Positions 15,109 through 29,953 of a stretch of 64,000 bases of DNA are shown piece by piece. Position numbers and translations under genes: made by a program. Source of the stretch: an uncultured Oscillospiraceae bacterium (GTDB taxonomy: Bacteria; Bacillota; Clostridia; Oscillospirales; Oscillospiraceae); the NCBI GenBank assembly GCA_944385795.1, contig CALWYP010000038.1, forward strand, positions 5,774-69,773. The letters run 5' to 3'. Within the stretch, counting starts at the first letter, position 1. Each line of letters begins with the position of its first letter. Below the pieces are notes generated by a model. The model worked only from the letters and a program-made list of their open reading frames with translations. It was not told where the DNA came from and did not search any database.

Positions 15109-16557
15109 TTACAGGCTGTCGCCGAAATCGGCGCGGAACTTGGCGGCGAGCTTTTCCTCCCAATCGCTGGTGGGCTCGAGCCGGCCGAAGAAGAAGCGCA
15201 GGCTGCTCGGCTCCTCGACCCAGCGCAGGCCGCCGACGAGCTCGCGGTTCTCGAACAGCCAGCTTATGCGGTCTACCGCGTAGAGCACCTGGCTCATTGT
15301 GAAGACGCGCCTGGGCATGGCGAGGCGCAGGAGCTCCACGTCGGCGATGGGCTCCGTGCCGTCGGGCTCGCGCTGCTCGCTGAGCGTGCCGCGCTCCATG
15401 CCGCGGATGCCGCCGGCGATGTACACGGCCGCGGCCAGGGCGCCGGCGGGGTACTCGTGGTCGTCGATATGCGGCAGGAACTCGCGCGCGTTGAGGTGGC
15501 AGCCCAGGCCGCCGGCGGGCGTCACGACCGGCACGCCGTGTTTTTGCGGCTCGCGGGTCATGAAGTCGATGAAGATCGGGCCCTGGCTTATGACGTCCTC
15601 GTCCATGGTCTCGTCGAGGCCGACGGTGATGGCCTCCATCTCGCGCACGCTCATGCCGCCGTAGGTGAGGAAGCCCTCGTACATGGGCACCAGCTCGCGC
15701 ATGGCCTCGAAGTGCTTTTTGTCGTGTATCGCGATGCAGCCGCCGCGGGCGAAGCCGAACTTGCGCGCGGAGAAGTAGATGATGTCGAACTCGTCGGCCA
15801 CGGCGCGGGTTATCTCGCGTATGCTCATGCCCTTGCAGGCTTCCTCGCGGGTCTTTATGAAGTAGAGGTTGTCCTGCAGCAGGCTCGCGTCGAGGACGGT
15901 CATGATACCGTTCTCGCGGCAGATCCCGCAGACGTCGCGCATGTTCTGAAGGCTGAGCGGCTGGCCGCCAATGAGGTTCGTGCCGGCCTCGATACGGAGG
16001 AAGGGTATGTGCTCCACGCCGGTGTCGGCGATGAATTTCCTGAGCTTGCCGAGGTCTATGTCGCCCTTGAAGGGGTCGTCGCTCGTGGTCTTTATGCCCT
16101 CGTCCTTGACGAGCTCGGCCACGCTGGCGCCGAGGCGGGTGATATGCGCCTTGGTCGTGGTGAAGTGGAAGTTCATAGGCACCACGTCGCCGGGCTTCAC
16201 AAAGGCGACGGCCAGGATGTTCTCGCAGGCGCGGCCCTGGTGGGCGGGGAGGAGGAAGTCGGTGCCGAAGAGCTCGTGCACCTTCGCCTCGAGCCGGTCG
16301 AAGCTGGCGCTGCCGGCGTAGCTGTCGTCGCATATCAGCATGGCGGCGGTTTGTCGGTCGCTCATGCCGTTTACGCCGGAATCGGTGAGCATGTCGAGGA
16401 AGATGTCCTTGTTCTTGAGCAGGAAGGTGTTGTTCCCAGCCTCCGTGATGGCCTCGAGGCGGCGCTCGACGCTCTGTAGGTTGAGCTTCTGGACCATGCG
16501 CACCTTGTGCAGCTCGAGGGGGATGTCCATACCCGTGAAGAACTTGATGTTTGCCAT
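15109..16557 (-). CDS. tpl: PLP-dependent beta-eliminating lyase, tyrosine phenol-lyase-like (tryptophanase/TPL family)
   Basis: Family-typical blocks FLDMLTDSGVNGMSD, PAHQGRACEN, GGQPLSL and SARK (PLP Lys context). It has FTTT and LRFF where, as I recall them, tryptophanases have FDTT and LRHF. This favours TPL over tryptophanase. Confidence 0.7.
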   Translation of the reverse strand: MANIKFFTGMDIPLELHKVRMVQKLNLQSVERRLEAITEAGNNTFLLKNKDIFLDMLTDSGVNGMSDRQTAAMLICDDSYAGSASFDRLEAKVHELFGTDFLLPAHQGRACENILAVAFVKPGDVVPMNFHFTTTKAHITRLGASVAELVKDEGIKTTSDDPFKGDIDLGKLRKFIADTGVEHIPFLRIEAGTNLIGGQPLSLQNMRDVCGICRENGIMTVLDASLLQDNLYFIKTREEACKGMSIREITRAVADEFDIIYFSARKFGFARGGCIAIHDKKHFEAMRELVPMYEGFLTYGGMSVREMEAITVGLDETMDEDVISQGPIFIDFMTREPQKHGVPVVTPAGGLGCHLNAREFLPHIDDHEYPAGALAAAVYIAGGIRGMERGTLSEQREPDGTEPIADVELLRLAMPRRVFTMSQVLYAVDRISWLFENRELVGGLRWVEEPSSLRFFFGRLEPTSDWEEKLAAKFRADFGDSL

Positions 16558-16619: not shown

Positions 16620-16925
16620 TGAGGAAAAGAAAAACGCCCTTCCTCTCAATAGAGGACGAGCGCCAAATCCCGTGTTACCACCTCAGTTCGCCGTCACCTC
16701 ACGATAACGGCCTTTTCGAGTGCGTCGGCAAAAGCCGAGATACTCTATCTCTGTAACGGGAGAAGCCCGGCCCGGCCTACCGGCGCTGACGCGCTTTCGT
16801 GGAGCGGCTCGTGCGTGTATTCCCGGGGCGGTCCTGATGCCTCGCAGCAACCGGCACTTCTCTGAAGGTCCCGTTACCCGGTACTATTCCGCAGTCACAG
16901 CCGTTGGCCTGTGTGAACTTGCTTT
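16620..16925 (-). promoter_or_regulatory. T-box riboswitch leader, probable Tyr (UAC) specifier
   Basis: Minus strand features: AG-bulge/distal-loop block AGAGAAGUGCCGGUUGCUGCGAGGCA. Specifier-type internal loop with AGUA opposite GAA-UAC-A (UAC at 16819..16817). T-box sequence GAGGUGGUAACACGG (16671..16686). Terminator UCCUCU-AUUG-AGAGGA plus a U-run (about 16625..16664). Confidence 0.75.
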
Positions 16926-17629: not shown

Positions 17630-18214
17630 TTACTTTTTGGGGTAGTGTATCACCATCACGGCGCGAGTTAGGGCGTCGGAGGCGCTGCGGTATGTATGCG
17701 GCTGATCCCCGCGGTAGTGTATGGCCGAGCCTCGAGGAACCGTATAGCGTTCGCGCCCCGCGCTCCCGAGGGTTATCTCTAGCGCGCCCTGATACACAAG
17801 CACGAACTCCTCCGTGCCATCGGCGTGGGCGCTGCTGTCCGAAACCGAGCCGGGGTCGAGCTCAAGATCGAGCATCTCAAAGTCCCGCCCGGGCCGAACC
17901 TTAAATATGGGATAGAGCCTGAAATGCCCCCTGTCGTTGAGCAGCGGGGTCATATCTGCCTCATTTACTATAGTGATGCCCTGCTCGCTGCGCTCCATGA
18001 GCGATGTAAAGGACACGTTGAGCCCGGTTGCGATTTTCCAGAGCGTTGAAATGGTTGGGCTGGATTCCCCGCGCTCTATCTGCCCGAGCATGCTTTTGCT
18101 TACCCCGGTGCGCTCGGAAACCTCGCCAAGGCTCAGCTGCGCCTGCGCGCGCAGGGCGCGAAGGTTTTCGGCAATAACGCGGTTCATATCCGTGGCTTCT
18201 TCTATATTGGGCAT
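17630..18214 (-). CDS. XRE-family HTH transcriptional regulator with a C-terminal cupin sensor domain
   Basis: HTH segment LSLGEVSERTGVSKSMLGQIERGESSPTISTLWKIA, followed by a cupin-like beta region (EEFVLVYQGALEI ... IHYRGDQPHTY). RBS GGAGGG lies 9 nt upstream. Confidence 0.8.
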   Translation of the reverse strand: MPNIEEATDMNRVIAENLRALRAQAQLSLGEVSERTGVSKSMLGQIERGESSPTISTLWKIATGLNVSFTSLMERSEQGITIVNEADMTPLLNDRGHFRLYPIFKVRPGRDFEMLDLELDPGSVSDSSAHADGTEEFVLVYQGALEITLGSAGRERYTVPRGSAIHYRGDQPHTYRSASDALTRAVMVIHYPKK

Positions 18215-18327
18215 GCGATGACTCCCTCCTCGACGTACGCTATAGCGTCTGATACATTTATACCACCCGCCGCTGGAAAGTACAACAAAATTTTTTGCTC
18301 ATGCGCTAAAAATGTGCCTGTCATCTG

Positions 18328-18384
18328 TTGACAATGAAAATGAAATGTGTTATCTTTAACGCACAGATGAGTGCGTTATAACGC
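18328..18384 (+). promoter_or_regulatory. Promoter with an overlapping operator-like repeat upstream of the glycyl radical enzyme gene
   Basis: TTGACA (18328..18333), a 17-nt spacer, then TATCTT (18351..18356). Immediately after comes the perfect inverted repeat TAACGCAC-AGATGA-GTGCGTTA (18357..18378) and a third half-site TAACGCA (18378..18384). Confidence 0.5.
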
Positions 18385-18431
18385 ATTACAAGCGCAGGAT
18401 TACATTCAGCTTTAAAGAAAGGATGACAGGC

Positions 18432-20801
18432 ATGATCACTGAGCGTATCGAGAAGATCCGTCAGAACTATGTTAACGCGAAGCCGCAGATATCCTATGAG
18501 CGCGCGCTTATATGGACCGAGTCCTATAAGAGCACCGAGGGCAAGCCGGCTTGTATACGCGCCGCCAAGGCCTTCTATGACTGCTGCGACCGCCTGGGAG
18601 TGCACATTTTCGAGGGCGAGCTGGTTGTCGGCGCAATCGGCGAATTCCGCAAATGCGGCATACTTACGCCTGAGTTCTCCTGGATGTGGGTTGACCGCGA
18701 GATGGACAATTTTGCGACCAGGCCGCAGGATCCGTACGTCATGACGGATGAGCAGCGTGCCTTCGTCCGCGAAAACATTTTCCCCTACTGGAAGGGCAAG
18801 AGCCTTGAGGAGGCCTTCCTCGCCCGCCTGCCCGAGGATACGCGGCGCGTCGGAGTCGACACCGGCGTCATAGACAGCGACTCCAAGTGGAGGCAGGCCG
18901 TGGGCGAAATAACGCCTGACTACCAGGACGTCCTCTTCAAGAAGGGCTTCGGCGGGATTATGCGCGAGGCCGAGGAGCACATCGCCGCCCTCGACATTTC
19001 CAAGCCCGAGGACGAGGATAAGCGCGACTTCTACGAATCCGTGATCTGGGCCTGCCGCGGTATCATCCGTATTGCCGGGCGCTATGCCGACGAGGCCGAG
19101 CGCCTGGCCTCCGAAGAGGCCGACGCTGTGCGCGCCGGCGAGCTGCGCACCATAGCCGCGGTCTGCCGCGCCGTGCCGGCCAACCCGCCGCGCAGCTTCC
19201 GCGAAGCCATCCAGTTCGTGTGGTTCACCCAGCTCGGCGGCATACTGTCCGAGAACCCGCTCGCGCTTAACCCCGGCCGCTTTGACCAGTATATGGACCC
19301 CTACTACGAGGCGGACCTTGCCGCCGGCAGCATCACCGCCGACGAGGCCCAGGAGCTTATCGACGCCCTCTGGCTCAAGTACTCCGAATGGGTCTGGACC
19401 ATTTCCGCCAACACCGCCGACTATTTCGCGGGCTACAACCAGTTCCAGAACCTGACCGTCGGCGGCAAGACGCGCGACGGCAAGGACGGAACCAACGCCG
19501 TCACCTATATGGCCCTCAAGGCGACCGAGGAGGTCAAAACTCATCAGCCGGGCCTTTCCGTGCGCGTCCACGCCGACTGCCCGAGGGATTTCCTCGACGC
19601 CGTTACTCATCTTGTCAGCAAGGGCACCGGCTTCCCGGCCATCCACAGCGACAGCGTCGGCTACCAGATGCTGCTCAACCTCGGATATTCCCCCGACGAC
19701 GCCCGCGACTGGAGCAACTGCGGCTGCGTGGTGCCCCACTCGCGCAAGACCGGCGAGTGGACCAGCGCCGCCAATCTCAATTTCGGCTCCGCGCTGGAGT
19801 ACGCCCTCAACGAGGGCCGCTCGCTCATGACCGGCGAGCTGATGGGCCTTGAGACGCCTCCCGCCGCCGAATACGCCGGCTTTGAGGCCGTCAAGCAGGC
19901 TTTCTACAGCCAGTTTGACAACCTCTGCCGCCACGCGGTCATCTCCCTCGTGACCGCCCAGAGGGTCCACCGCGAGATGGTCCCCCGCCCCTTCCTCTCC
20001 GCCTGCAACGAGCACTGCATGGAGAGCGGCACCGACCTGAGCCACGGCGGCGCCAAGTATAACATCGGGCCCGTCATCACCGGCATCGGCCTGGCTGTTG
20101 TCGCCAATTCCCTCGCCGCCATAAAGAAGCTGGTCTTCGAGGACAAGGCTTGCAGCATGGCGGAGCTCGTCGCCGCCCTGCGCGCCAACTGGGAGGGCTA
20201 TGACGAGCTGCGCGCTCTGGCGCAGGCCTGCCCGAAGTACGGCAACGACGACGACTACGTCGACTCCATAGCGCAGGAGGTCTCCAACCACTATTACCAT
20301 GAGGTGCACCAGTACAAGGACATCTTTGGCAACCCCTTCACCACCGCCTTCATGGGTATCTCCAACTACATCCCCATGGGCCGCGTGCTCGGCGCCACTC
20401 CCGACGGGCGCAAGAACGGCGAGCCCTCCAGCGAGGGCGTGAGCCCCTTCGTCGGCACGGATAAGTCCACCCCGCTCGCCGCCATGCGCTCCACCGCCAA
20501 GATGAACCAGGAAATCCACTCCGGCGGCACGCTGCTGAATCTCAGGCTTAACCCAGAGCTCGTGGCCACCAAGCGCGGCCAATCCAACCTCGGCGCGATG
20601 ATTCAGACGCTCTTCTCCCTCGGCGGCTTCCATGTGCAGTTCAACTGCATTTCCTCCGACATACTGCGCGACGCGCAGAAGCACCCCGAGAACTATCGGG
20701 ACCTCCTCGTGCGCGTGGCCGGCTATTCGACCCAGTTCGTAAACCTGTCCAGGTCCATGCAGGACGCCATCATCGCGCGTACCGAGCACAGCGGCTTCTG
20801 A
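18432..20801 (+). CDS. Glycyl radical enzyme of the PFL2 (dehydratase/lyase) type, substrate unknown
   Basis: C-terminal glycyl radical motif RVAGYSTQF (Gly codon 20721..20723). Cys loop WSNCGCVVPH (Cys 19725..19727). Size (~790 aa) and N-terminus are typical of PFL2-type GREs. The second ATG (18432) has better RBS spacing than 18423. Confidence 0.85.
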   Translation: MITERIEKIRQNYVNAKPQISYERALIWTESYKSTEGKPACIRAAKAFYDCCDRLGVHIFEGELVVGAIGEFRKCGILTPEFSWMWVDREMDNFATRPQDPYVMTDEQRAFVRENIFPYWKGKSLEEAFLARLPEDTRRVGVDTGVIDSDSKWRQAVGEITPDYQDVLFKKGFGGIMREAEEHIAALDISKPEDEDKRDFYESVIWACRGIIRIAGRYADEAERLASEEADAVRAGELRTIAAVCRAVPANPPRSFREAIQFVWFTQLGGILSENPLALNPGRFDQYMDPYYEADLAAGSITADEAQELIDALWLKYSEWVWTISANTADYFAGYNQFQNLTVGGKTRDGKDGTNAVTYMALKATEEVKTHQPGLSVRVHADCPRDFLDAVTHLVSKGTGFPAIHSDSVGYQMLLNLGYSPDDARDWSNCGCVVPHSRKTGEWTSAANLNFGSALEYALNEGRSLMTGELMGLETPPAAEYAGFEAVKQAFYSQFDNLCRHAVISLVTAQRVHREMVPRPFLSACNEHCMESGTDLSHGGAKYNIGPVITGIGLAVVANSLAAIKKLVFEDKACSMAELVAALRANWEGYDELRALAQACPKYGNDDDYVDSIAQEVSNHYYHEVHQYKDIFGNPFTTAFMGISNYIPMGRVLGATPDGRKNGEPSSEGVSPFVGTDKSTPLAAMRSTAKMNQEIHSGGTLLNLRLNPELVATKRGQSNLGAMIQTLFSLGGFHVQFNCISSDILRDAQKHPENYRDLLVRVAGYSTQFVNLSRSMQDAIIARTEHSGF

Positions 20802-20868: not shown

Positions 20869-21609
20869 ATGGGCGGATATATTATGCAGCTTCAGGACTT
20901 TTCGGTCAACGACGGCGAGGGCATACGCACGATCGTCTTTATGGCCGGCTGCCCCCTGCGCTGCGCGTGGTGCTCCAACCCCGAAGGCCAGACCCTGCGC
21001 AATCCCATGACACGATGGGCAGAGGCCGGGGAGATAATCGGACACATAAGGCACCAGGAGATATTTTACCGCAGTTCCGGCGGCGGGGTGACATTCTCCG
21101 GCGGCGAAGCCACGGCCCAGCCGGACTTCCTCGCGGAGCTTGTGAACGAGCTCTACGACGAGGGCTTCAACCTCGCCATTGAGACCTGCGGCTTTTTCGA
21201 CTTTGAAAGGATCAGGCCCTTGCTGATGAAGATGGAGCGTATCTTCATGGACCTCAAGTGCCTGGACGCCGGACGCCACCGCGCCTTCACCGGCGCGGAT
21301 AACGGCCTTATACTCGAGAACCTGTCCAGGACAGCCGCGCTCGGCGTGCCTATGACCATACGGATCCCCACCATCCTCGGAGTTAACGCCGCGGACGACG
21401 ACATGGCTGCGGCCTTCGACTTCATTGCCGGCTCCTGCCGCGGCGCCAGCCTCGAGCTGCTGCCTTATCACAGGTACGGCGAGGCAAAATACGCCCAGCT
21501 CGGCCTCGAAGCCCCCGGCAGCGAGTTCGGCACCCCGGCTCCCGAGCAGATCGAGCGCTGGCTTGGCATGGCCCGTGAACGGGGGATTGAGACCGTGTCC
21601 TTCAAATGA
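20869..21609 (+). CDS. Glycyl-radical-enzyme activating enzyme (radical SAM), short PflA-like form
   Basis: CX3CX2C motif GCPLRCAWCSNPE and GGE motif TFSGGEAT. There are no additional ferredoxin-type Cys clusters. ATG 20869 follows GGAGG by 8 nt. The track start 20854 is a TTG. Confidence 0.85.
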   Translation: MGGYIMQLQDFSVNDGEGIRTIVFMAGCPLRCAWCSNPEGQTLRNPMTRWAEAGEIIGHIRHQEIFYRSSGGGVTFSGGEATAQPDFLAELVNELYDEGFNLAIETCGFFDFERIRPLLMKMERIFMDLKCLDAGRHRAFTGADNGLILENLSRTAALGVPMTIRIPTILGVNAADDDMAAAFDFIAGSCRGASLELLPYHRYGEAKYAQLGLEAPGSEFGTPAPEQIERWLGMARERGIETVSFK

Positions 21610-22964
21610 ATATGGATACCAGCAACACGAGGAGTGGCTTTATGCGGATGGCCGTCGTCCTGCCTAAGACGCAGGTGGAAATTTATTACCAGAGGTTTAC
21701 CGCCGTATTTGAAAATGAATTCAGTGAAATAGAAGTTGAATACATATTTTACAAGGATTATAAGGAGGCCCCGGGCCTGATAAAAGACAGGCAGCGGGAC
21801 TTTGACGCGATTATTTTCGCGGGGTCGGCGTCGTATTTCTACACCGAGAGCCAGCTCAAGCAGGAGACAATCTGGCTGTATCTCCCGCGCGAGGGCAGCG
21901 CCATCTATCGCGCGCTGCTGCTCGCCTACCGGCGGGGCTGGGACATAACCAGGCTGAGCTTTGACACCTATGAGCCTGACATGCTCAGGGAGGCTTATGA
22001 GGAGCTGGGTTACGACGCGGCGAGCTTAAATATACACCTGTGCAAGGGAAACCTGCGCAGCCCCGATTATAACCGCTTCGTGCTGGACTTCCACCAGGGC
22101 CTGCTGTCCAGCGGCCGCGTCAGCGGCTGCATAACGCGGCTGACCACCGTGGCCAATATGATGGAGACTCAGGGGATACCCTATATCTTCGCGCATCCCA
22201 CCATCGACACCGTGCGCGAGCAGGTTTCCTTCGCCCAGAAGCTGGCCGTGGCAAGGCGCGACTGCTGGGGGCAAATTGCCGTGCTGCTGGTGAACGTAGC
22301 TATGCCCCTCGACTACTCCGTGCTTGTCTCGGCGGACTACTCCATTGAAATGGACCGCCTGCGCATGGCGAACCATGTACACCGTTTTGCAAACCTTATC
22401 CGCGGCATGGCGATGGAACAGGGCACGAGCGCGTACGTCATAGTGTCCACGATGGACCTGCTTGAGGCGCAGACAGAGGTTTACAGGAGCCTGCCGCTTA
22501 TAGACTGGCTGGAAAAGGAGTGCCCCTACACCATTTCCGTAGGGATAGGCTGCGGCGAGTCGGTGTACGAAGCGCACCGCATGGCGGCGCTGGCCCTGCG
22601 CAAGTGCACGCAGAGGAAAAGGAGCTCCGCTTATGTCCAATTCCCGGACGGCACGGGGCTCTTCATACGCCGCGGCGGATCGGTCACCGCGGAACGCAGC
22701 GCCATGGACGAATGGCAGGAAACCGCGGTCGCCAGCGGTCTGAGCGTCAGTACAATCTACCGTCTTGCGGAACTAATAAACAGAAAACAGACCGATACCA
22801 TGACCGCGCAGGAGATAGCCGACGGCCTGCACATCAACCGCCGCAGCGCCGACCGCCTGATAGAAAAGCTGGAGTCGGCCGGCCGGGCGTCCGTCACCGG
22901 ACGCGAGCTCTCCGGGAAGAAGGGCCGGCCGGCGCGTATAGTCCAACTGTTCCTAAAGCTCTGA
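21606..22964 (+). CDS. Putative transcriptional regulator of unknown family (large N-terminal sensor-like region, C-terminal HTH)
   Basis: The start overlaps the activase stop (ATGA). The C-terminal HTH-like segments are LSVSTIYRLAELI and MTAQEIADGLHINRRSADRLIEKLE. I recognise no enzymatic motif. Confidence 0.5.
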   Translation: MNMDTSNTRSGFMRMAVVLPKTQVEIYYQRFTAVFENEFSEIEVEYIFYKDYKEAPGLIKDRQRDFDAIIFAGSASYFYTESQLKQETIWLYLPREGSAIYRALLLAYRRGWDITRLSFDTYEPDMLREAYEELGYDAASLNIHLCKGNLRSPDYNRFVLDFHQGLLSSGRVSGCITRLTTVANMMETQGIPYIFAHPTIDTVREQVSFAQKLAVARRDCWGQIAVLLVNVAMPLDYSVLVSADYSIEMDRLRMANHVHRFANLIRGMAMEQGTSAYVIVSTMDLLEAQTEVYRSLPLIDWLEKECPYTISVGIGCGESVYEAHRMAALALRKCTQRKRSSAYVQFPDGTGLFIRRGGSVTAERSAMDEWQETAVASGLSVSTIYRLAELINRKQTDTMTAQEIADGLHINRRSADRLIEKLESAGRASVTGRELSGKKGRPARIVQLFLKL

Positions 22965-23199: not shown

Positions 23200-23907
23200 A
23201 TGTCACAAGATCAGTTCCAGACTGTAATAAACAGCCCGTGGATGTGGCTGGCCTGCGGCGTAATGGTGCTTATAGTCATAGCGCAGTCGGTCGTATATCT
23301 AAGAGGGGCGCTGAGGGAAGCGGACCGCCTTGGCATAGAAGCCAAAAGGCGGCATGGCGCAATACGCTCCGCCTGCATAAGCGCGGTGGGCCCGTCGCTT
23401 TCCCCGGTCATAATCGCGCTGAGCATGATTACGATAATCGGCGCGCCGAACACCTGGCTGTATCTCAACAACGTTGGCGCGGCCCGCACGGAGCTCGCAA
23501 CGGTGGCCATAGGGGCGGAATTTGCCGGCGTGTTTGAGCTTGGCGACAACATCGGCATGAGCGCGCTCAGCTGCGCCATGTGGGCCTGCGCGCTAAACGG
23601 CGTGGGCTGGATGATAGTGGTATTCTTCCTCAACCACCGTATGCAGCGGATTTCCGACGCGCTGTACGCAAAATTCGACCGGGCGCTAGTGAGCGCGCTC
23701 ATGGGCGCGGCGGTTACCAGCCTCTTCTGTTATCTGCTGGGCAACCAGCTCGTAAGCGGGAACTGGAGGCACTATCTTGCGGCGGCGATATCCGGCGGCT
23801 GTATGCTGCTGCTTGGATACATATGCAAAGGGCACGGCGTGCTGCAGGAAATTTCACTTGGCGTCTCAATGCTGGCAGGTATGCTGCTCACGCAGCTTGT
23901 GGCGTAA
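23200..23907 (+). CDS. Integral membrane protein, paralog A of a tandem pair (possibly DUF5058-like; family assignment uncertain)
   Basis: 235 aa, multi-TM. Clearly homologous to the next gene (shared blocks INSP..W, LRG.L.EA..LGI.A.RR...IRSACI...GPSL.PV, GAARTEL, FFL.HRM, AAAISG). RBS GGGGGAG. Confidence 0.6.
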   Translation: MSQDQFQTVINSPWMWLACGVMVLIVIAQSVVYLRGALREADRLGIEAKRRHGAIRSACISAVGPSLSPVIIALSMITIIGAPNTWLYLNNVGAARTELATVAIGAEFAGVFELGDNIGMSALSCAMWACALNGVGWMIVVFFLNHRMQRISDALYAKFDRALVSALMGAAVTSLFCYLLGNQLVSGNWRHYLAAAISGGCMLLLGYICKGHGVLQEISLGVSMLAGMLLTQLVA

Positions 23908-23942
23908 GCCAATATTAAGCCTGAAAAAGAGGAGGAGAAAAA

Positions 23943-24644
23943 ATGGACTTCCAAGAAATCATCAACAGTCCGATATTGTGGGTCCTGTCAGGCCTTATGG
24001 TAGTGGCCAGCGTGGTGCAGGCAATAGTGTTCCTGCGCGGGTCGCTCAAAGAGGCCAACAAGCTCGGAATCGACGCGTCGCGCCGCAAGGCGAGCATACG
24101 AAGCGCGTGCATAACCTCGCTGGGCCCCTCCCTGGCGCCGGTAGTCAGCGTGCTCGCGCTCATGGCCGTTATCGGCGGGCCGACCACCTGGATGCGCCTG
24201 TGCGACGTCGGCGCCGCGCGTACCGAGCTCGGCGTCGTCTCGCTCATGGCTAACCTCACGGGGGCCGAGGTCGGCGGCGAGAGCTTCGGCATCCAGAGCT
24301 TCGCCTACTCGCTCTGGGGCATGGCGCTCAACAACTTCGGCTGGCTGGCCATAGTGTTCTTCCTCGTCCACCGCATGGACAAGGTCGTCGTCTGGATGGA
24401 CAAGAAGTACGACCCCAAGTGGATAAAGGTTCTTATGGGCGCGGCCACCATGAGCATGTTCGCCTACCTGCTGAGCAATCAGCTCTACAAGTTTAACTGG
24501 AACAACTGGGCCGCGGCGGCCATCAGCGGCGCTTCAATGCTGATCATAGGCTCCGCGTTCAAAAAGCACCAGAGGCTGCAGGAGCTGGCACTCGGCCTCT
24601 CGCTAATCATCGGTATGCTGGCCACCCAGGCCATATTTGGCTGA
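23943..24644 (+). CDS. Integral membrane protein, paralog B of the tandem pair
   Basis: 233 aa, collinear with 23200..23907 over its full length. RBS GAGGAGGAG. Confidence 0.6.
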   Translation: MDFQEIINSPILWVLSGLMVVASVVQAIVFLRGSLKEANKLGIDASRRKASIRSACITSLGPSLAPVVSVLALMAVIGGPTTWMRLCDVGAARTELGVVSLMANLTGAEVGGESFGIQSFAYSLWGMALNNFGWLAIVFFLVHRMDKVVVWMDKKYDPKWIKVLMGAATMSMFAYLLSNQLYKFNWNNWAAAAISGASMLIIGSAFKKHQRLQELALGLSLIIGMLATQAIFG

Positions 24645-24668
24645 ACGCCCGGATAAGGAGGCAGTAAA

Positions 24669-25331
24669 ATGTCATACAATTCTTCCGTCATCCGCAACGG
24701 CCGCATAACCATGGGCCTTGCGATTATAGCGAACTTCATCCCCGCCATCTATGTCGGCTTCGCCTACGACGTTATGCCGCCCATCGGCGTGCTGTTCCAG
24801 ATTTGGGGCGTCGTCGCGGCGAGCTACGGCATCACCTGGATAATCCAGCCCATAGCCTATTATCCCACGATGGGCACCGCCGGCTCCTATATCGGCTGGC
24901 TGGCCGGCAGCTGCGGCGACATACGCATGCCCGCCGCCGCAATGGCCCAGAAGGTGGCCCGCGTTGAGGCCGGCACGCACGAGGGCGACGTTATAGGCAC
25001 TATCGGCGTGGCCTGCTCCGTGCTCGTATCCGCATCTATGGTCACCCTCTTCGTACTTATCGGCACCCAGGTCATCCCCCTGCTGCCCGAGTTCATCACC
25101 GAGTCCTTCAGCTACATACTGCCCGCGCTCTTCGGCGCCATCTTTGTCGACAACGCCCGCAAGAACCTCAAGGCCGGTATACTCACCCTGGTCTGCGGCA
25201 TGCTTATCCTCCACTTCGGCACCATGATAGGCATCAACAGCGGAATCCTGACCCTGCTCATCGTCGTGCTGGGCATACTCATCACCCGCGTCTTCTTCGT
25301 CGCCGACAAGAAAAAGGCCGCCAAGGAATAA
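24669..25331 (+). CDS. Integral membrane protein of unknown function (third component of the putative transporter)
   Basis: 220 aa, hydrophobic, with a conserved-looking loop GSCGDIRMPAAAMAQKV. RBS AAGGAGG. Only a 24-nt gap separates it from the previous gene. Confidence 0.55.
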   Translation: MSYNSSVIRNGRITMGLAIIANFIPAIYVGFAYDVMPPIGVLFQIWGVVAASYGITWIIQPIAYYPTMGTAGSYIGWLAGSCGDIRMPAAAMAQKVARVEAGTHEGDVIGTIGVACSVLVSASMVTLFVLIGTQVIPLLPEFITESFSYILPALFGAIFVDNARKNLKAGILTLVCGMLILHFGTMIGINSGILTLLIVVLGILITRVFFVADKKKAAKE

Positions 25332-25346
25332 GGAGGACATGGATAT

Positions 25347-26528
25347 ATGGAAGCTATACTCAAAAAACAGCTGGAAGACTACATAGATTCCCACCGCCAG
25401 GAAATGCTCGACCTCTGGCGCGACGTAGTCAACCTCGAGGGAAACAGCGACGATCTGGCCGGCCTGCGGCTGGTCGTCGACAGGTTCAAGGCCGAATTTG
25501 AGGCCGCCGGAATGACCTGCCAGCTCCTACCCATGGGCGATAAGACCCAGGATTACCTTGTTGGCACGCTTGGCAGCGACAGGCCCGGCAAGGCCGTGCT
25601 CTTCAGCGGGCACTACGACACTATTCTCCCGCGCGGCAAATACGGGCCCTCCCCCTTCAGGATCGAAAATGGCCACGCCCGCGGCCCGGGCGTGCTGGAC
25701 ATGAAGGGCGGCATAGTGATAGCCCTCTACGTCATCCGCGCCCTTAACGCCATTGGCTGGGCCGAGCGTCCGCTCAAGATATGCTTTGTCTCCGACGAGG
25801 AGAGCTGCCACGAGCACAACGACAAGGCCGGGGAAACCCTCATGCGCGAGGCGGAGGGCTGCCTTTGCGCCTTCAACATGGAGACCGGCCGCATAAACAA
25901 CGACATCTGCATCGGCCGCAGCGCGCGCGTAGGCTTTGACGTCGCTATCGACGGCGTCGCCGCACACGCCGGCAACGACTTCGCCTCCGGCCGCAGCGCC
26001 ATCGCCGAAATGTGCCGCAAGGTGCTCGAGCTTGAGGCCCTTACCAACCTCGAAAAGGGCAGCACGGTAAACTGCGGCGTCATCCGCGGCGGCACGGTGG
26101 CCAACGCTATCCCCGGCCACTGCGAACTGAACGTGGACATGCGCTTCCTCAGCCAGGCCGAGCTCACCAAGACCGTCGAGGCCGCGAAAGCCATCTGCGA
26201 GAAAACCTGGATAGACGGCACGCACACCACCTATTCTTACCGCGTGGCCATGCCCGCCTTCGAAACCATCCCCGGCGTCATGGAACTGTACGAGCTCACC
26301 CGCAGCGCCAGCGAAGCCTACGGTTACGGCAGCCCCGGCAAGATAGTGCTCGGCGGCGTGTCCGACGCCAGCTACCTCACCATGGCCGGCGTTCCCACGC
26401 TCTGCTCCTGCGGCGTGCGCGGCGAAAATAACCACACCGACGAAGAGTACGGCCTTGTGGAATCCCTCTACGAGCGCGCCAAGCTGCTCACCGCCGTCGT
26501 GCTCCATCTTGACGAGTTCAAGTATTGA
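25347..26528 (+). CDS. M20-family metallopeptidase / amidohydrolase (carboxypeptidase G2-like)
   Basis: M20 signatures: LFSGHYDT, GPGVLDMKGG, VSDEE and a C-terminal GG.SDAS block. Confidence 0.8.
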   Translation: MEAILKKQLEDYIDSHRQEMLDLWRDVVNLEGNSDDLAGLRLVVDRFKAEFEAAGMTCQLLPMGDKTQDYLVGTLGSDRPGKAVLFSGHYDTILPRGKYGPSPFRIENGHARGPGVLDMKGGIVIALYVIRALNAIGWAERPLKICFVSDEESCHEHNDKAGETLMREAEGCLCAFNMETGRINNDICIGRSARVGFDVAIDGVAAHAGNDFASGRSAIAEMCRKVLELEALTNLEKGSTVNCGVIRGGTVANAIPGHCELNVDMRFLSQAELTKTVEAAKAICEKTWIDGTHTTYSYRVAMPAFETIPGVMELYELTRSASEAYGYGSPGKIVLGGVSDASYLTMAGVPTLCSCGVRGENNHTDEEYGLVESLYERAKLLTAVVLHLDEFKY

Positions 26529-27827: not shown

Positions 27828-29006
27828 ATGAGCATTCGTGAGAGACTTTCCGGCAACGAGGCAGTTGCCTACGCAATGAAGCAGATAAACCCCGACGTCA
27901 TGGGCGCGTACCCCATAACGCCGAGCACGGAGATACCTCAGTATTTCTCCGCCTATGTGGATAACGGCGAAGTGGACACCGAGTTCATCGCCGTCGAGAG
28001 CGAGCACAGCGCCATGTCCACCTGCATCGGCGCCGAGGCCGCCGGCTGCCGCGCCATAAGCGCCACCAGCTCCTGCGGGCTTTGCTACATGACCGAGATG
28101 CTGTACGTCGCGGCGAGCGACCGCCTGCCCATCACCCTCGCGGTGAGCTGCCGCGCGCTCAGCGGCCCCATCAACATCAACAACGACCACTCCGACGCCA
28201 TGGGCGTGCGCGACACCGGCTGGCTCATGCTCTTTGCCGAGACCAACCAGGAGGCCTACGACAACTACCTCCAGGCCATGCGCATAGCGGAGGCCGTGAG
28301 CCTGCCCATAATGATCTGCCAGGACGGCTTTATCACCTCCCACGCCATCGAGAACATCGAGCTCGTCGAGACGGACAAGGTCAGGGCCTTCGTCGGCGAG
28401 TACAAGCCCGCCCACTACCTGCTCAACAAGGACGAGCCCATGGCCGTCGGCGCTTACGCCACCCCGGTGTACTACATGGAGGCCAAGCGCCAGCAGGCCC
28501 AGGCCATGATGGACGCCAAGGACGTCATCCGCAAGGTCGGCGCCGAGTTCGCCGAGATGACCGGGCGCAGCTACGGCCTCATAGAGAAATACATGATGGA
28601 CGACGCAGAAATCGCCATCGTCATCATGGGCTCCTCCGCCGGCACCGCCAAGGAGGCCATAAAGCAGCTTCGTGCCAGGGGAGTGAAGGCCGGCCTCGTC
28701 AAGGTCAGATCCTTCCGTCCCTTCCCGAGCGAGGACATAGCCGAGGCGCTCTCCGGCGTCAAGGCCTTCGCCGTCATGGACAAGGACGACAGCTTCAACG
28801 CCCACTGCGGCCCCATGTACGCGGAGGTTACCTCGTCGCTCTACGCCGCCGGCGTCAGCGGCCCGAAGGGCGTCAGCTACATATACGGCCTCGGCGGCCG
28901 CGACGTGCGCGTCGAGAGCATTGAGCGCGTTTTCAACGAGCTGGAGGATATCGCCGCGACGGGCAATGCGGGCGAGACCTACCGCTACCTCGAAGTGCGC
29001 GAATAA
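27828..29006 (+). CDS. 2-oxoacid:ferredoxin oxidoreductase, alpha subunit
   Basis: 392 aa. N-terminus GNEAVAYAMKQINPDVMGAYPITPSTEI is typical of PorA/VorA. Confidence 0.85.
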   Translation: MSIRERLSGNEAVAYAMKQINPDVMGAYPITPSTEIPQYFSAYVDNGEVDTEFIAVESEHSAMSTCIGAEAAGCRAISATSSCGLCYMTEMLYVAASDRLPITLAVSCRALSGPININNDHSDAMGVRDTGWLMLFAETNQEAYDNYLQAMRIAEAVSLPIMICQDGFITSHAIENIELVETDKVRAFVGEYKPAHYLLNKDEPMAVGAYATPVYYMEAKRQQAQAMMDAKDVIRKVGAEFAEMTGRSYGLIEKYMMDDAEIAIVIMGSSAGTAKEAIKQLRARGVKAGLVKVRSFRPFPSEDIAEALSGVKAFAVMDKDDSFNAHCGPMYAEVTSSLYAAGVSGPKGVSYIYGLGGRDVRVESIERVFNELEDIAATGNAGETYRYLEVRE

Positions 29007-29020
29007 GGAGGCCGAGAACT

Positions 29021-29953
29021 ATGGCTTACAATCTGAAAGAGAACGTTATGCGCGAAGACCGCCTCTCCGGCGGGCACAGGATGTGCGCCGGCTGCGGCTC
29101 GCCCATCGCCGTGCGCACCGTGCTGCGAGCCCTCGACCCCGGCGACAAGGCCGTAGTCTGCTCGGCCACGAGCTGCCTCGAGGTTTCCACCTTCATGTAC
29201 CCCTACACCGCGTGGAAGGACAGCTTCATCCACAACGCCTTTGAGAACGCGGGCGCGACCATGTCCGGCGTCGAGACCGCTTACCGCGCGATGAAAAAGC
29301 GCGGCAAGATAGACGAGACATGGAAGTTCATCGCCTTCGGCGGCGACGGCGGCACCTACGACATCGGTTTCCAGAGCCTCTCAGGCGCAATGGAGCGCGG
29401 CCACGACATGGTCTACGTCTGCTACGATAACGAGGCGTACATGAACACCGGCATACAGCGCTCTTCCTCCACGCCGCATTTCGCCGATACAACCACGACC
29501 CCCGTCGGCAAGGTGATCCCCGGCAAAATGCAGCAGAAGAAGAACCTCACGAAGATAATGGTCGCCCACAACATCCCCTACGTCGCTCAGACGACCTTCA
29601 TAGGTAACTTCAAGGACATCTCGGAAAAGGCGCACAAAGCCATCTACACCCCGGGCGCGGCGTTCCTGAACGTCATGGCCCCCTGCCCTCGCGGCTGGCG
29701 ATACGCCACCGAGAAGCTCATGGAGATAACCAAGCTCGCCGTCGAGACCTGCGTCTGGCCGCTCTACGAGGTTGTTGGGGGTAAATACGTCCTCAATTAC
29801 GAGCCCAAGAACAAGCTGCCCGTCGAGGCCTACCTCAAGCCGCAGGGCCGCTTCGCGCATATGTTCAAGCCCGGAAACGAGTGGATGATTGAGGAAATGC
29901 AGAAGGAAGTCGACCGCAACTGGGAAGAGCTCCTCAGGCTGTGCAGCATGTAA
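29021..29953 (+). CDS. 2-oxoacid:ferredoxin oxidoreductase, beta (TPP-binding) subunit
   Basis: CAGCG near the N-terminus and the TPP motif GGDGGTYDIG...YDNEAYMNTG. Confidence 0.85.
   Translation: MAYNLKENVMREDRLSGGHRMCAGCGSPIAVRTVLRALDPGDKAVVCSATSCLEVSTFMYPYTAWKDSFIHNAFENAGATMSGVETAYRAMKKRGKIDETWKFIAFGGDGGTYDIGFQSLSGAMERGHDMVYVCYDNEAYMNTGIQRSSSTPHFADTTTTPVGKVIPGKMQQKKNLTKIMVAHNIPYVAQTTFIGNFKDISEKAHKAIYTPGAAFLNVMAPCPRGWRYATEKLMEITKLAVETCVWPLYEVVGGKYVLNYEPKNKLPVEAYLKPQGRFAHMFKPGNEWMIEEMQKEVDRNWEELLRLCSM

Follow-up and report, generated by a model that had tools for sequence, protein, structure and literature searches.

A separate clade of glycyl radical enzymes with Val in place of the Cys-loop Glu, predicted from an uncultured Oscillospiraceae bacterium

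What reaction might be catalyzed by a glycyl radical enzyme (GRE) whose Cys loop carries Val at the place where characterized eliminases carry Glu? The question is raised by a gene within a 64,000-nucleotide stretch of DNA (the window) from an uncultured Oscillospiraceae bacterium (contig CALWYP010000038.1 of assembly GCA_944385795.1, positions 5,774 to 69,773). An earlier note, made from the sequence alone, had described the product as a PFL2-type GRE with a non-canonical Cys loop, and had proposed an unassigned substrate and chemistry different from known 1,2-eliminations. To judge from sequence comparisons, the gene belongs to a separate, monophyletic and well-populated GRE clade that has a distinct catalytic loop and is so far uncharacterized. 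The members of this clade are probably functional, oxygen-sensitive GREs that constitute a new isofunctional family, with a small, amino-acid-type substrate and chemistry other than that of the C-x-E loop. The relevant parts of the gene are as follows.

18432-20801, plus strand: GRE gene, a member of the 'CGCVVP' clade; an intact open reading frame (ORF) of 789 amino acids, by translation
19710-19739, plus strand: Cys loop W427-S-N-C430-G-C432-V-V434-P-H436, by translation and alignments
20712-20726, plus strand: glycyl radical motif R-V-A-G764-Y, amino acids 761-765, with the G764 codon at 20721-20723
18906-18908, plus strand: codon of E159, an invariant Glu at the predicted substrate-contact position, aligned with CutC D216, with the His of 'GH' in enzymes of the PflD/YbiW type and with PflB R176

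By every sequence-level criterion, the protein is a member of the PFL-like division of the GRE superfamily. It matches the Pfam models for the ten-stranded barrel domain (PFL-like; PF02901, 734 bits) and for the C-terminal glycine-radical domain (Gly_radical; PF01228, 112.6 bits), and translation confirms the RVAGY motif reported earlier, which agrees with RVxG[YFW]. The coordinates previously given for NCGCVVP (amino acids 429-435, nucleotides 19716-19736) and for the V434 codon (GTG, 19731-19733) are exact. Both C430 (19719-19721) and C432 (19725-19727) are encoded by TGC. The start codon is likely ATG 18432, which is preferred over the in-frame ATG 18423 because the AGG of a purine-rich GAAAGG stretch sits 9 nucleotides before it, and because a public collection contains an identical 789-amino-acid protein (P0001). 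The upstream ATG directly abuts the GAAAGG stretch.

The assignment to the PFL2 type is borne out by the PFL2-3 subfamily model TIGR01774, on which the protein scores 663.5 bits, marginally under the cut-off of 678.2, and by a best match to CutC, the choline trimethylamine (TMA)-lyase. The CutC equivalog TIGR04394 is the best-scoring characterized family (706.5 bits versus a cut-off of 1050), and genuine CutC representatives (P0153 and P0160) score 1590 and 1601 bits on the same model. Scores also fall below cut-off for HpsG (631 versus 1000), HypD (571 versus 1100), pyruvate formate-lyase (PFL; TIGR01255, 154.8 versus 994), and the decarboxylases IAD (NF033718, 421 versus 1100) and HPAD (NF033715, 325 versus 1150), and among the NCBIfam profiles no equivalog cut-off is reached. 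The PDB contains no member of the family; the best matches there are to CutC at about 38-40% identity, followed by HpyG, GD, HpzG and others (names from PMC13450708). TutD (315 bits) and MasD (311 bits) are among the weakest GRE matches in the PDB. The protein thus lacks the close similarity to BSS/MASS alpha subunits expected of an X-succinate synthase, and no conserved accessory genes occur near the GRE gene among ORFs of at least 90 amino acids.

When 1.84 billion cluster representatives were searched exhaustively with HMMER, a sharp gap in identity appeared: fragments of family members lie at 55-79%, and every other full-length protein lies at or below 41%. Within the family, identity is at least 61%. 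According to the paper on AARE-type enzymes, 40-50% identity is already under the level that separates most GRE functions. In neighbor-joining trees (bootstrapped on 44 taxa), the family is monophyletic in 100/100 replicates and stands on a stem branch about 13 times as long as the median internal one. The closest group is the P0153/P0160 pair of bona fide CutC proteins, at a support of 62/100, and the family is tentatively placed as the sister of CutC. No description of the CGCVVP clade was found in a 2026 GRE review (PMC13450708) or in the searchable literature, whose coverage leaves out most subscription journals; two 2026 'metallo-BSH' preprints do no more than cite GRE papers. The earlier view of an unassigned substrate agrees with the profiles, the structures and the literature alike, none of which links the protein to a characterized family.

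The claim that Val occupies the Glu position depends on correct identification of the Cys loop. In HMMER alignments to CutC structures, C432 is paired with CutC C489, and V434 is paired with residue 491; the CutC chain compared in residue-level detail was an E491A mutant. In a MAFFT alignment of Escherichia coli K-12 PflB, PflD and YbiW with genuine CutC proteins and representatives of other GRE clusters, C432 shares its column with PflB C419 and with the Cys of GC[VI]E in PflD and YbiW, and V434 occupies that of the C-x-E Glu. The same alignment places C430 with PflB A417 and G431 with C418. C432 is the predicted thiyl radical Cys. A GCxE loop hidden elsewhere in the protein was considered and rejected on both alignments: the other C-x-E-like strings, C525-N-E and C529-M-E (in 'CNEHC', 525-529), align with 'EGCME' of CutC, away from the Cys loop. 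The loop is therefore non-canonical with respect to characterized enzymes, as had been noted, because the C-x-E motif is described as universal in GRE 1,2-eliminases and isomerases (PMC13450708; PMC7077986, the HypD structure paper). In those enzymes, the Glu is hydrogen-bonded to a substrate hydroxyl. The clade instead has C432-V433-V434, with Val invariant in 193 sequences.

The loop is conserved throughout the family. The pattern W[SN]NCGCVVP is found in all 120 of the best database homologues (at least 81% identity) and in all 85 fetched loci, of which 80 came from a one-genome-per-species scan and 5 from metagenomes, down to 63% identity. It is also kept in a 61%-identical protein of Peptoclostridium acidaminophilum, and is invariant in 193 of 193 distinct family sequences (61-94% identity), drawn from several phyla. 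In this set, whose identity to the window protein is 63-86%, 318 of the 789 positions are at least 98% conserved. Invariant residues include S151, K152, W153, R154, E159, L277, N280, F332, Y335 and F338, then W427, N429, C430, G431, C432, V433, V434, P435 and H436 in the loop region, and R438, T444, N448, M641, S644, N645 and Y646 further toward the C terminus; RVAGY (761-765) is likewise invariant. At the DNA level, the loop exists in 70 distinct 30-nucleotide versions, in which V434 is encoded by GTG, GTC, GTA or GTT and both Cys residues by TGC or TGT. A single-base sequencing error (GTG for GAG) was considered, and is rejected on these versions and their use of all four Val codons. Conservation of the loop together with synonymous codon variation therefore indicates purifying selection on the protein, rather than error or chance, and by this sequence measure the selection is strong.

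The family is widespread in gut and sediment anaerobes. There are 188 relatives in a one-genome-per-species collection, and one cluster of members occurs on at least 1000 metagenome contigs. Cultured carriers are Anaerotignum propionicum, A. neopropionicum, Evtepia gabavorous, P. acidaminophilum DSM 3953, Acetoanaerobium noterae, Fusibacter ferrireducens, Dethiosulfatibacter aminovorans and genomes labelled C. difficile.

The absence of Glu does not by itself make the clade a unique oddity. Among the 137 full-length proteins that represent the nearest 50%-identity clusters, C-x-E is present in 101 and C-x-D in 4, and 32 match neither pattern, with loops such as GCVT, GCVQ, GCSS, GCVR and GCVN. 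A few of these non-matches, among them FCAE and NCVE loops, are artefacts of the alignment, which leaves about 30 that truly differ, or about 20% of the neighboring uncharacterized GRE clusters. Cys loops without Glu are, on these alignments, common in the uncharacterized part of the GRE family. Within the nearest 150 cluster representatives, no other clade has the CGCVV loop, and one representative carries CGCSE.

Another of these 150 representatives, P0199, has RVAAY in place of RVAGY; it presumably belongs with the AARE-type enzymes, described recently, that use an alanyl radical.

Active-site residues were mapped from the alignment, with the numbering of D. alaskensis CutC. From CutC to the window GRE, the correspondences are Y208 to S151, D216 to E159, T334 to L277, F389 to F332, Y392 to Y335, F395 to F338, M487 to C430, C489 to C432, E491 to V434, Q493 to H436, W501 to W443, T502 to T444, Y506 to N448, S701-N702 to S644-N645, and G821 to G764. 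All of the mapped window residues are invariant or at least 99% conserved in the family. The choline pocket of CutC comprises E491, D216, T502 and F395, together with Y208 and Y506, the tyrosines of the trimethylamine pocket. Of these six, the family keeps T502 and F395 alone. Position 159 is a known catalytic hot-spot, where other GREs have a second acid/base or leaving-group contact. It holds Glu in the family, Asp in CutC and R176 in PflB; PflD, YbiW and a large share of the dehydratase-like representatives have His, and in GD this 'G-H' position is the catalytic His164 (PMC13450708). E159 ends a segment, D150-S-K-W-R-Q-A-V-G-E159, that is invariant and family-specific, and that brings in two cationic side chains, K152 and R154. 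Other family-specific residues are R438 and the invariant C430 and H436. The predicted site would thus combine several cationic residues with one carboxylate, placed at the 'leaving-group' position, and would have a hydrophobic Val-Val where eliminases hold their base. Such a site fits, but does not prove, a zwitterionic or carboxylate substrate that has no hydroxyl to deprotonate.

Compared with CutC (TIGR04394; PDB 5FAU, 5A0Z), the family has the same PFL2-type fold, length, thiyl Cys and Gly motif, and it shares the pocket residues F389, Y392, F395, W501, T502, S701 and N702 as well as a carboxylate at position 216 (Asp changed to Glu). It differs in that E491, Y208, Y506 and M487 are replaced by V434, S151, N448 and C430, in the gain of K152, R154 and H436, in loci without a cut-type microcompartment context, and in a TIGR04394 score well under 1050. 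The other GRE eliminases and isomerases (GD, PD, HypD, HpyG/HpzG, IslA/IseG, HpsG/HpfG, HplG, PflD and YbiW) share the PFL2 architecture, the GC-V-x-P loop framework and a cognate activase of the PFLE/PFLC type. However, they keep C-x-E (PMC13450708), whereas the family has C-V-V and is at most about 40% identical to them.

Gene context gives further hints on function. The genes in the window on either side of the GRE gene are as follows.

17630-18214, minus strand: regulator of 194 amino acids, divergent from the GRE gene, with HTH_3 (Pfam, 4.5e-15) and Cupin_2 (1.3e-8) domains
20869-21609, plus strand: GRE-activating radical S-adenosylmethionine (radical-SAM) enzyme, short form, 246 amino acids from ATG 20869; the ORF opens at TTG 20854
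21606-22964, plus strand: 452-amino-acid protein with a C-terminal helix-turn-helix (HTH) domain (weak HTH_11 match), whose start overlaps the activase stop
23200-25331, plus strand: three membrane proteins, namely two DUF5058 proteins (23200-23907 and 23943-24644; Pfam, 1e-47 and 3e-51) and a 220-amino-acid partner (24669-25331)
25347-26528, plus strand: M20 metallo-amidohydrolase (Pfam Peptidase_M20 and M20_dimer)

The neighboring activase, which had been noticed before, is above the cut-off of TIGR02494 (PFLE_PFLC; 231.9 bits versus 174), in two stretches that skip profile positions of about 50-105. It matches Radical_SAM and Fer4_12 in Pfam, and has a CX3CX2C motif and no ferredoxin-like auxiliary-cluster insert. 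In a survey of 86 loci, in which neighboring ORFs of at least 90 amino acids were considered, the activase adjoins the GRE gene in 72 and the HTH-cupin regulator (cluster fam2) in 44, and there is no other widely conserved partner. Many of the loci sit among housekeeping genes (NadABC, RNase R, YceG, BioB). The GRE and its activase, often with the regulator, behave as an autonomous module. The HTH-cupin protein, which has a weak PuuR-like NCBIfam match (40 bits, below cut-off), is likely a small-molecule-sensing regulator of this module.

Activases come in two architectures within this one GRE family. The usual form, found in about 33 loci, has about 300 amino acids, a ferredoxin-like insert and 8-10 extra Cys residues. 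The short form, found in about 30 loci including the window, has 246 amino acids, the CX3CX2C cluster only, and one or two other Cys residues; in its lack of auxiliary clusters, the activase of the window lineage resembles PflA. In the short form, the auxiliary [4Fe-4S] domain, whose role is still debated, seems to have been lost naturally.

The top neighbor family in the survey is M20, genes of which lie within 10 kb of the GRE gene in 13 of the 86 loci and in at least six lineages. Enolase-superfamily (MR_MLE) epimerases, Ala racemase-like proteins, PALP, DAO and CoA-transferase III are the next most recurrent, and Liv-type amino-acid ABC transporters also recur. The M20 protein of the window is most similar to glutamate carboxypeptidase (CPG2-like; PRK06133, 185 bits, under the cut-off of 349). 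The two DUF5058 proteins and their partner are a putative uptake system, and their arrangement with M20 directly 3' of the GRE and activase genes is found in two distant lineages, which suggests an uptake-plus-amide-hydrolysis unit. In Lachnospiraceae (L041, L042), the cassette contains a different M20 subfamily. The 220-amino-acid membrane ORF is conserved in L006, L014, L041 and L042, and no literature was found on DUF5058.

Several operons place the GRE gene beside genes for amino-acid metabolism. In some close relatives (L001, 1-13131, and L090, 1-10131), it is the penultimate gene in a long operon with the order Liv ABC, cytidylate-kinase-like, Aminotran_4 (class IV aminotransferase/D-aminotransferase), GLUCM-like, PxpB, PxpC, D-Glu cyclase, PxpA, Alr-like, GRE and activase, in which the stop codon of the Alr-like gene, encoding a 422-amino-acid alanine-racemase-family protein, overlaps the GRE start. 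This operon looks like a D-glutamate/5-oxoproline salvage route with a radical enzyme attached. A Dethiosulfatibacter operon consists of a DcuC carrier, two MR_MLE genes, M20, a CoA-transferase III gene that overlaps the GRE start, GRE and activase. In P. acidaminophilum, the order is amino-acid racemase, GntR, GRE and activase, with a dicarboxylate/amino-acid symporter close by. The common theme, namely metabolism of amino acids (Ala/Glu, interconversion of D and L forms, hydrolysis of N-acyl amino acids or dipeptides), is a lead, not a result.

A mechanism that accommodates both the predicted site and this context can be proposed. The neighboring radical-SAM activase is of the type that would install the radical on G764, and a thiyl radical at C432 would then abstract an H atom from a small amino-acid-like carboxylate. 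The Cys loop would not begin the reaction by deprotonating a hydroxyl of the substrate. K152, R154 and R438 might hold the substrate carboxylate or carboxylates. E159, and possibly H436, might provide acid/base catalysis or bind ammonium, with E159 either binding or protonating the amino or leaving group or acting as the base, and C430 could be a second H-atom or proton relay. The substrate, to which gene context points as something small and common, might be Ala-like or Glu-like, possibly a single enantiomer, or might be set free from an N-acyl amino acid or a dipeptide. Its product could re-enter general metabolism or be excreted, and would perhaps need no dedicated downstream enzyme, because the GRE and activase (with the regulator) travel as an autonomous module. 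We rank C-N or C-C cleavage or isomerization of an amino-acid-like carboxylate above a classical hydroxyl-driven 1,2-elimination.

Several points weigh against this proposal. The small amino-acid-type substrate is suggested because of a gene context that is itself variable: many loci give no metabolic hint, and the enrichment of M20 is about 2-fold over a rough chance estimate among loci that are phylogenetically related. The pocket is assigned by sequence alignment to CutC, and an AlphaFold2 model built from 47 family sequences is too poor to show the geometry, with a pLDDT (predicted local distance difference test) score of 58.6 and active-site segments below 50, because the alignment was shallow (at least 81% identity). 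The role given to C430 is conjecture, and this residue might be purely structural. Moreover, all of the nearest relatives work by elimination, and E159 could take over from the missing base. The earlier suggestion of different chemistry accordingly divides in two: the Cys-loop Glu is indeed absent and the Val invariant, but the change of chemistry is something that we infer, and E159, at the site of CutC D216 and of the dehydratase His, allows for a relocated acid/base. With that correction, and with the further ones that Glu-less loops are common and that a resemblance to PFL fails (as described below), the earlier reading of an unassigned substrate and probably non-canonical chemistry is reasonable.

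The alternative that survives best, although we regard it as unlikely, is a 1,2-eliminase (a C-N, C-O or C-S lyase) in which the catalytic carboxylate has moved from the Cys loop to E159, or in which H436 is the base, and which acts on a choline-like or ethanolamine-like amine or an O-esterified analogue. CutC is the closest characterized relative by profile score (706 bits on TIGR04394), by identity (38-40%) and as neighbor-joining sister; its pocket residues F389, Y392, F395, W501, T502, S701 and N702 are retained, and the change from D216 to E159 is conservative. However, the sister relation has a support of 62/100 only, and the CutC pocket tyrosines Y208 and Y506 are replaced by invariant Ser and Asn. 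Aldehyde-forming GRE eliminases are usually accompanied by aldehyde or alcohol dehydrogenase or microcompartment genes, and none of these are among the conserved or frequent neighbors. Also, all characterized eliminases and isomerases keep C-x-E, and E491 is essential in CutC (PMC13450708).

A less likely idea is that C430-G-C432 constitutes a two-thiol radical relay, which would give the clade a type of GRE reaction that is not yet known. The enzyme might be a cofactor-free racemase or epimerase, in which one Cys abstracts an H atom and the other returns one. Alternately, it might perform a net reduction that is paid for by the CGC dithiol/disulfide. A two-thiol relay would fit the clade because a general base is missing, because the module is autonomous, and because genes for racemase, dipeptide epimerase, D-Glu cyclase and D-aminotransferase lie nearby in some loci.

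It is quite improbable that the clade comprises GRE decarboxylases, which would convert an amino-acid-derived carboxylic acid to CO2 and an excreted end product and hence have no linked downstream enzymes. The stand-alone GRE and activase, with or without the regulator, resemble compact decarboxylase loci, and MATE efflux genes adjoin the module in about 10 loci. There is also a precedent in phenylacetate decarboxylase PhdB (PAD), whose loop lacks Glu and whose essential Gln484 is, by the text of the review, consistent with C-x-Q; therefore, Glu-less loops can be catalytic. However, PhdB, as described in the review, belongs to the far more distant arylacetate decarboxylase group and has no second loop Cys. 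The decarboxylases as a whole are much further from the clade than the eliminases are (IAD 421, HPAD 325 and AAD 334 bits versus 706 for CutC), no conserved small subunit is found near the GRE gene among ORFs of at least 90 amino acids, and the MATE association is limited to a few related lineages.

The earlier note had seen in the C-G-C arrangement a faint echo of the Cys-Cys pair of PFL, and a PFL-like enzyme that converts a 2-oxoacid to acyl-CoA and formate via acyl-Cys430 would be attractive in some respects. Among GREs other than ribonucleotide reductases, two Cys residues on the loop are otherwise found only in PFL and TdcE (PMC13450708). The loop lacks Glu, as does CCVS of PFL, the GRE and activase genes stand alone as in pflBA, and genes related to 2-oxoacids or 2-oxoglutarate occur near some loci. 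However, the echo fails on alignment: the PflB and TdcE residues are adjacent (Cys418-Cys419), unlike C-G-C, and C430 aligns with A417, not C418. Both R176 and R435, which bind pyruvate in PFL (PMC13450708), are absent, being replaced by E159 and N448. The score on TIGR01255 is 154.8 versus a cut-off of 994, and no formate channel or formate-metabolism genes are among the neighbors. On the alignment with E. coli PflB, this reading of C-G-C is rejected as the leading idea, and we consider it very improbable. Still more remote is a decayed, non-catalytic paralogue that lost Glu along with its function, for which the missing Glu is the sole support, and against which stand the Cys loop and the glycyl radical motif, invariant in 193 sequences along with about 40% of the protein's positions, the synonymous codon turnover, a cognate activase at 72 of 86 loci, and the member cluster on at least 1000 contigs.

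To our knowledge, each newly assigned GRE clade so far has given a new anaerobic reaction, often one that is relevant to the host (TMA, H2S, p-cresol, skatole, use of hydroxyproline), and CutC is a drug target. The present clade is attractive because it is abundant, is tentatively the sister of CutC yet lacks the essential Glu of that enzyme, is unique among the nearest 150 cluster representatives in its CGCVV loop, and is present in cultured strains. Similarity-based annotation could label its members as CutC or as 'formate acetyltransferase', and so inflate estimates of TMA production made from metagenomes.

Gene prediction in this region has a pitfall of its own. An antisense ORF of 822 amino acids (18321-20789, minus strand) spans the whole GRE gene, in sequence that is 63% G+C, and comparable antisense ORFs occur at further loci of high G+C content (cluster fam3, 15 loci). 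Most probably it is a shadow ORF, which would misdirect naive gene callers.

The 217-nucleotide region between the regulator and GRE genes contains one candidate promoter.

18328-18356, plus strand: sigma-70-like match TTGACA-17-TATCTT with an extended TG, from a consensus scan of the intergenic region

The scan returned four sites where 3.4 are expected in the region, and the evidence for the promoter is thus weak. An inverted repeat, ACGCAC-N6-GTGCGT, follows the match; it was considered as a conserved operator of the regulator/GRE region, and is rejected because it is present in only 3 of 82 other loci. Upstream of the GRE gene, no riboswitch was found either in the window or at six further loci. 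The 452-amino-acid protein encoded after the activase is a probable regulator; it has no PDB or NCBIfam assignment, and its homologues (fam15) adjoin the GRE gene in 5 loci.

Two further observations concern the surroundings of the module. A 2-oxoacid:ferredoxin oxidoreductase of two subunits (POR_N/PFOR_II, then TPP_enzyme_C) is encoded at 27828-29953 on the plus strand, 1.3 kb 3' of the M20 gene, and a link between it and the GRE module is possible. On the other side, a T-box-leader-like element at 16649-16907 on the minus strand (86.7 bits, with an Rfam gathering threshold of 93; E = 3.5e-18) lies directly 5' of a gene of the tryptophanase/tyrosine-phenol-lyase family (15109-16557, minus strand; NCBIfam 'tryptophanase' subfamily, 557 bits). 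A T-box would be an unusual means of controlling a catabolic beta-eliminating lyase.

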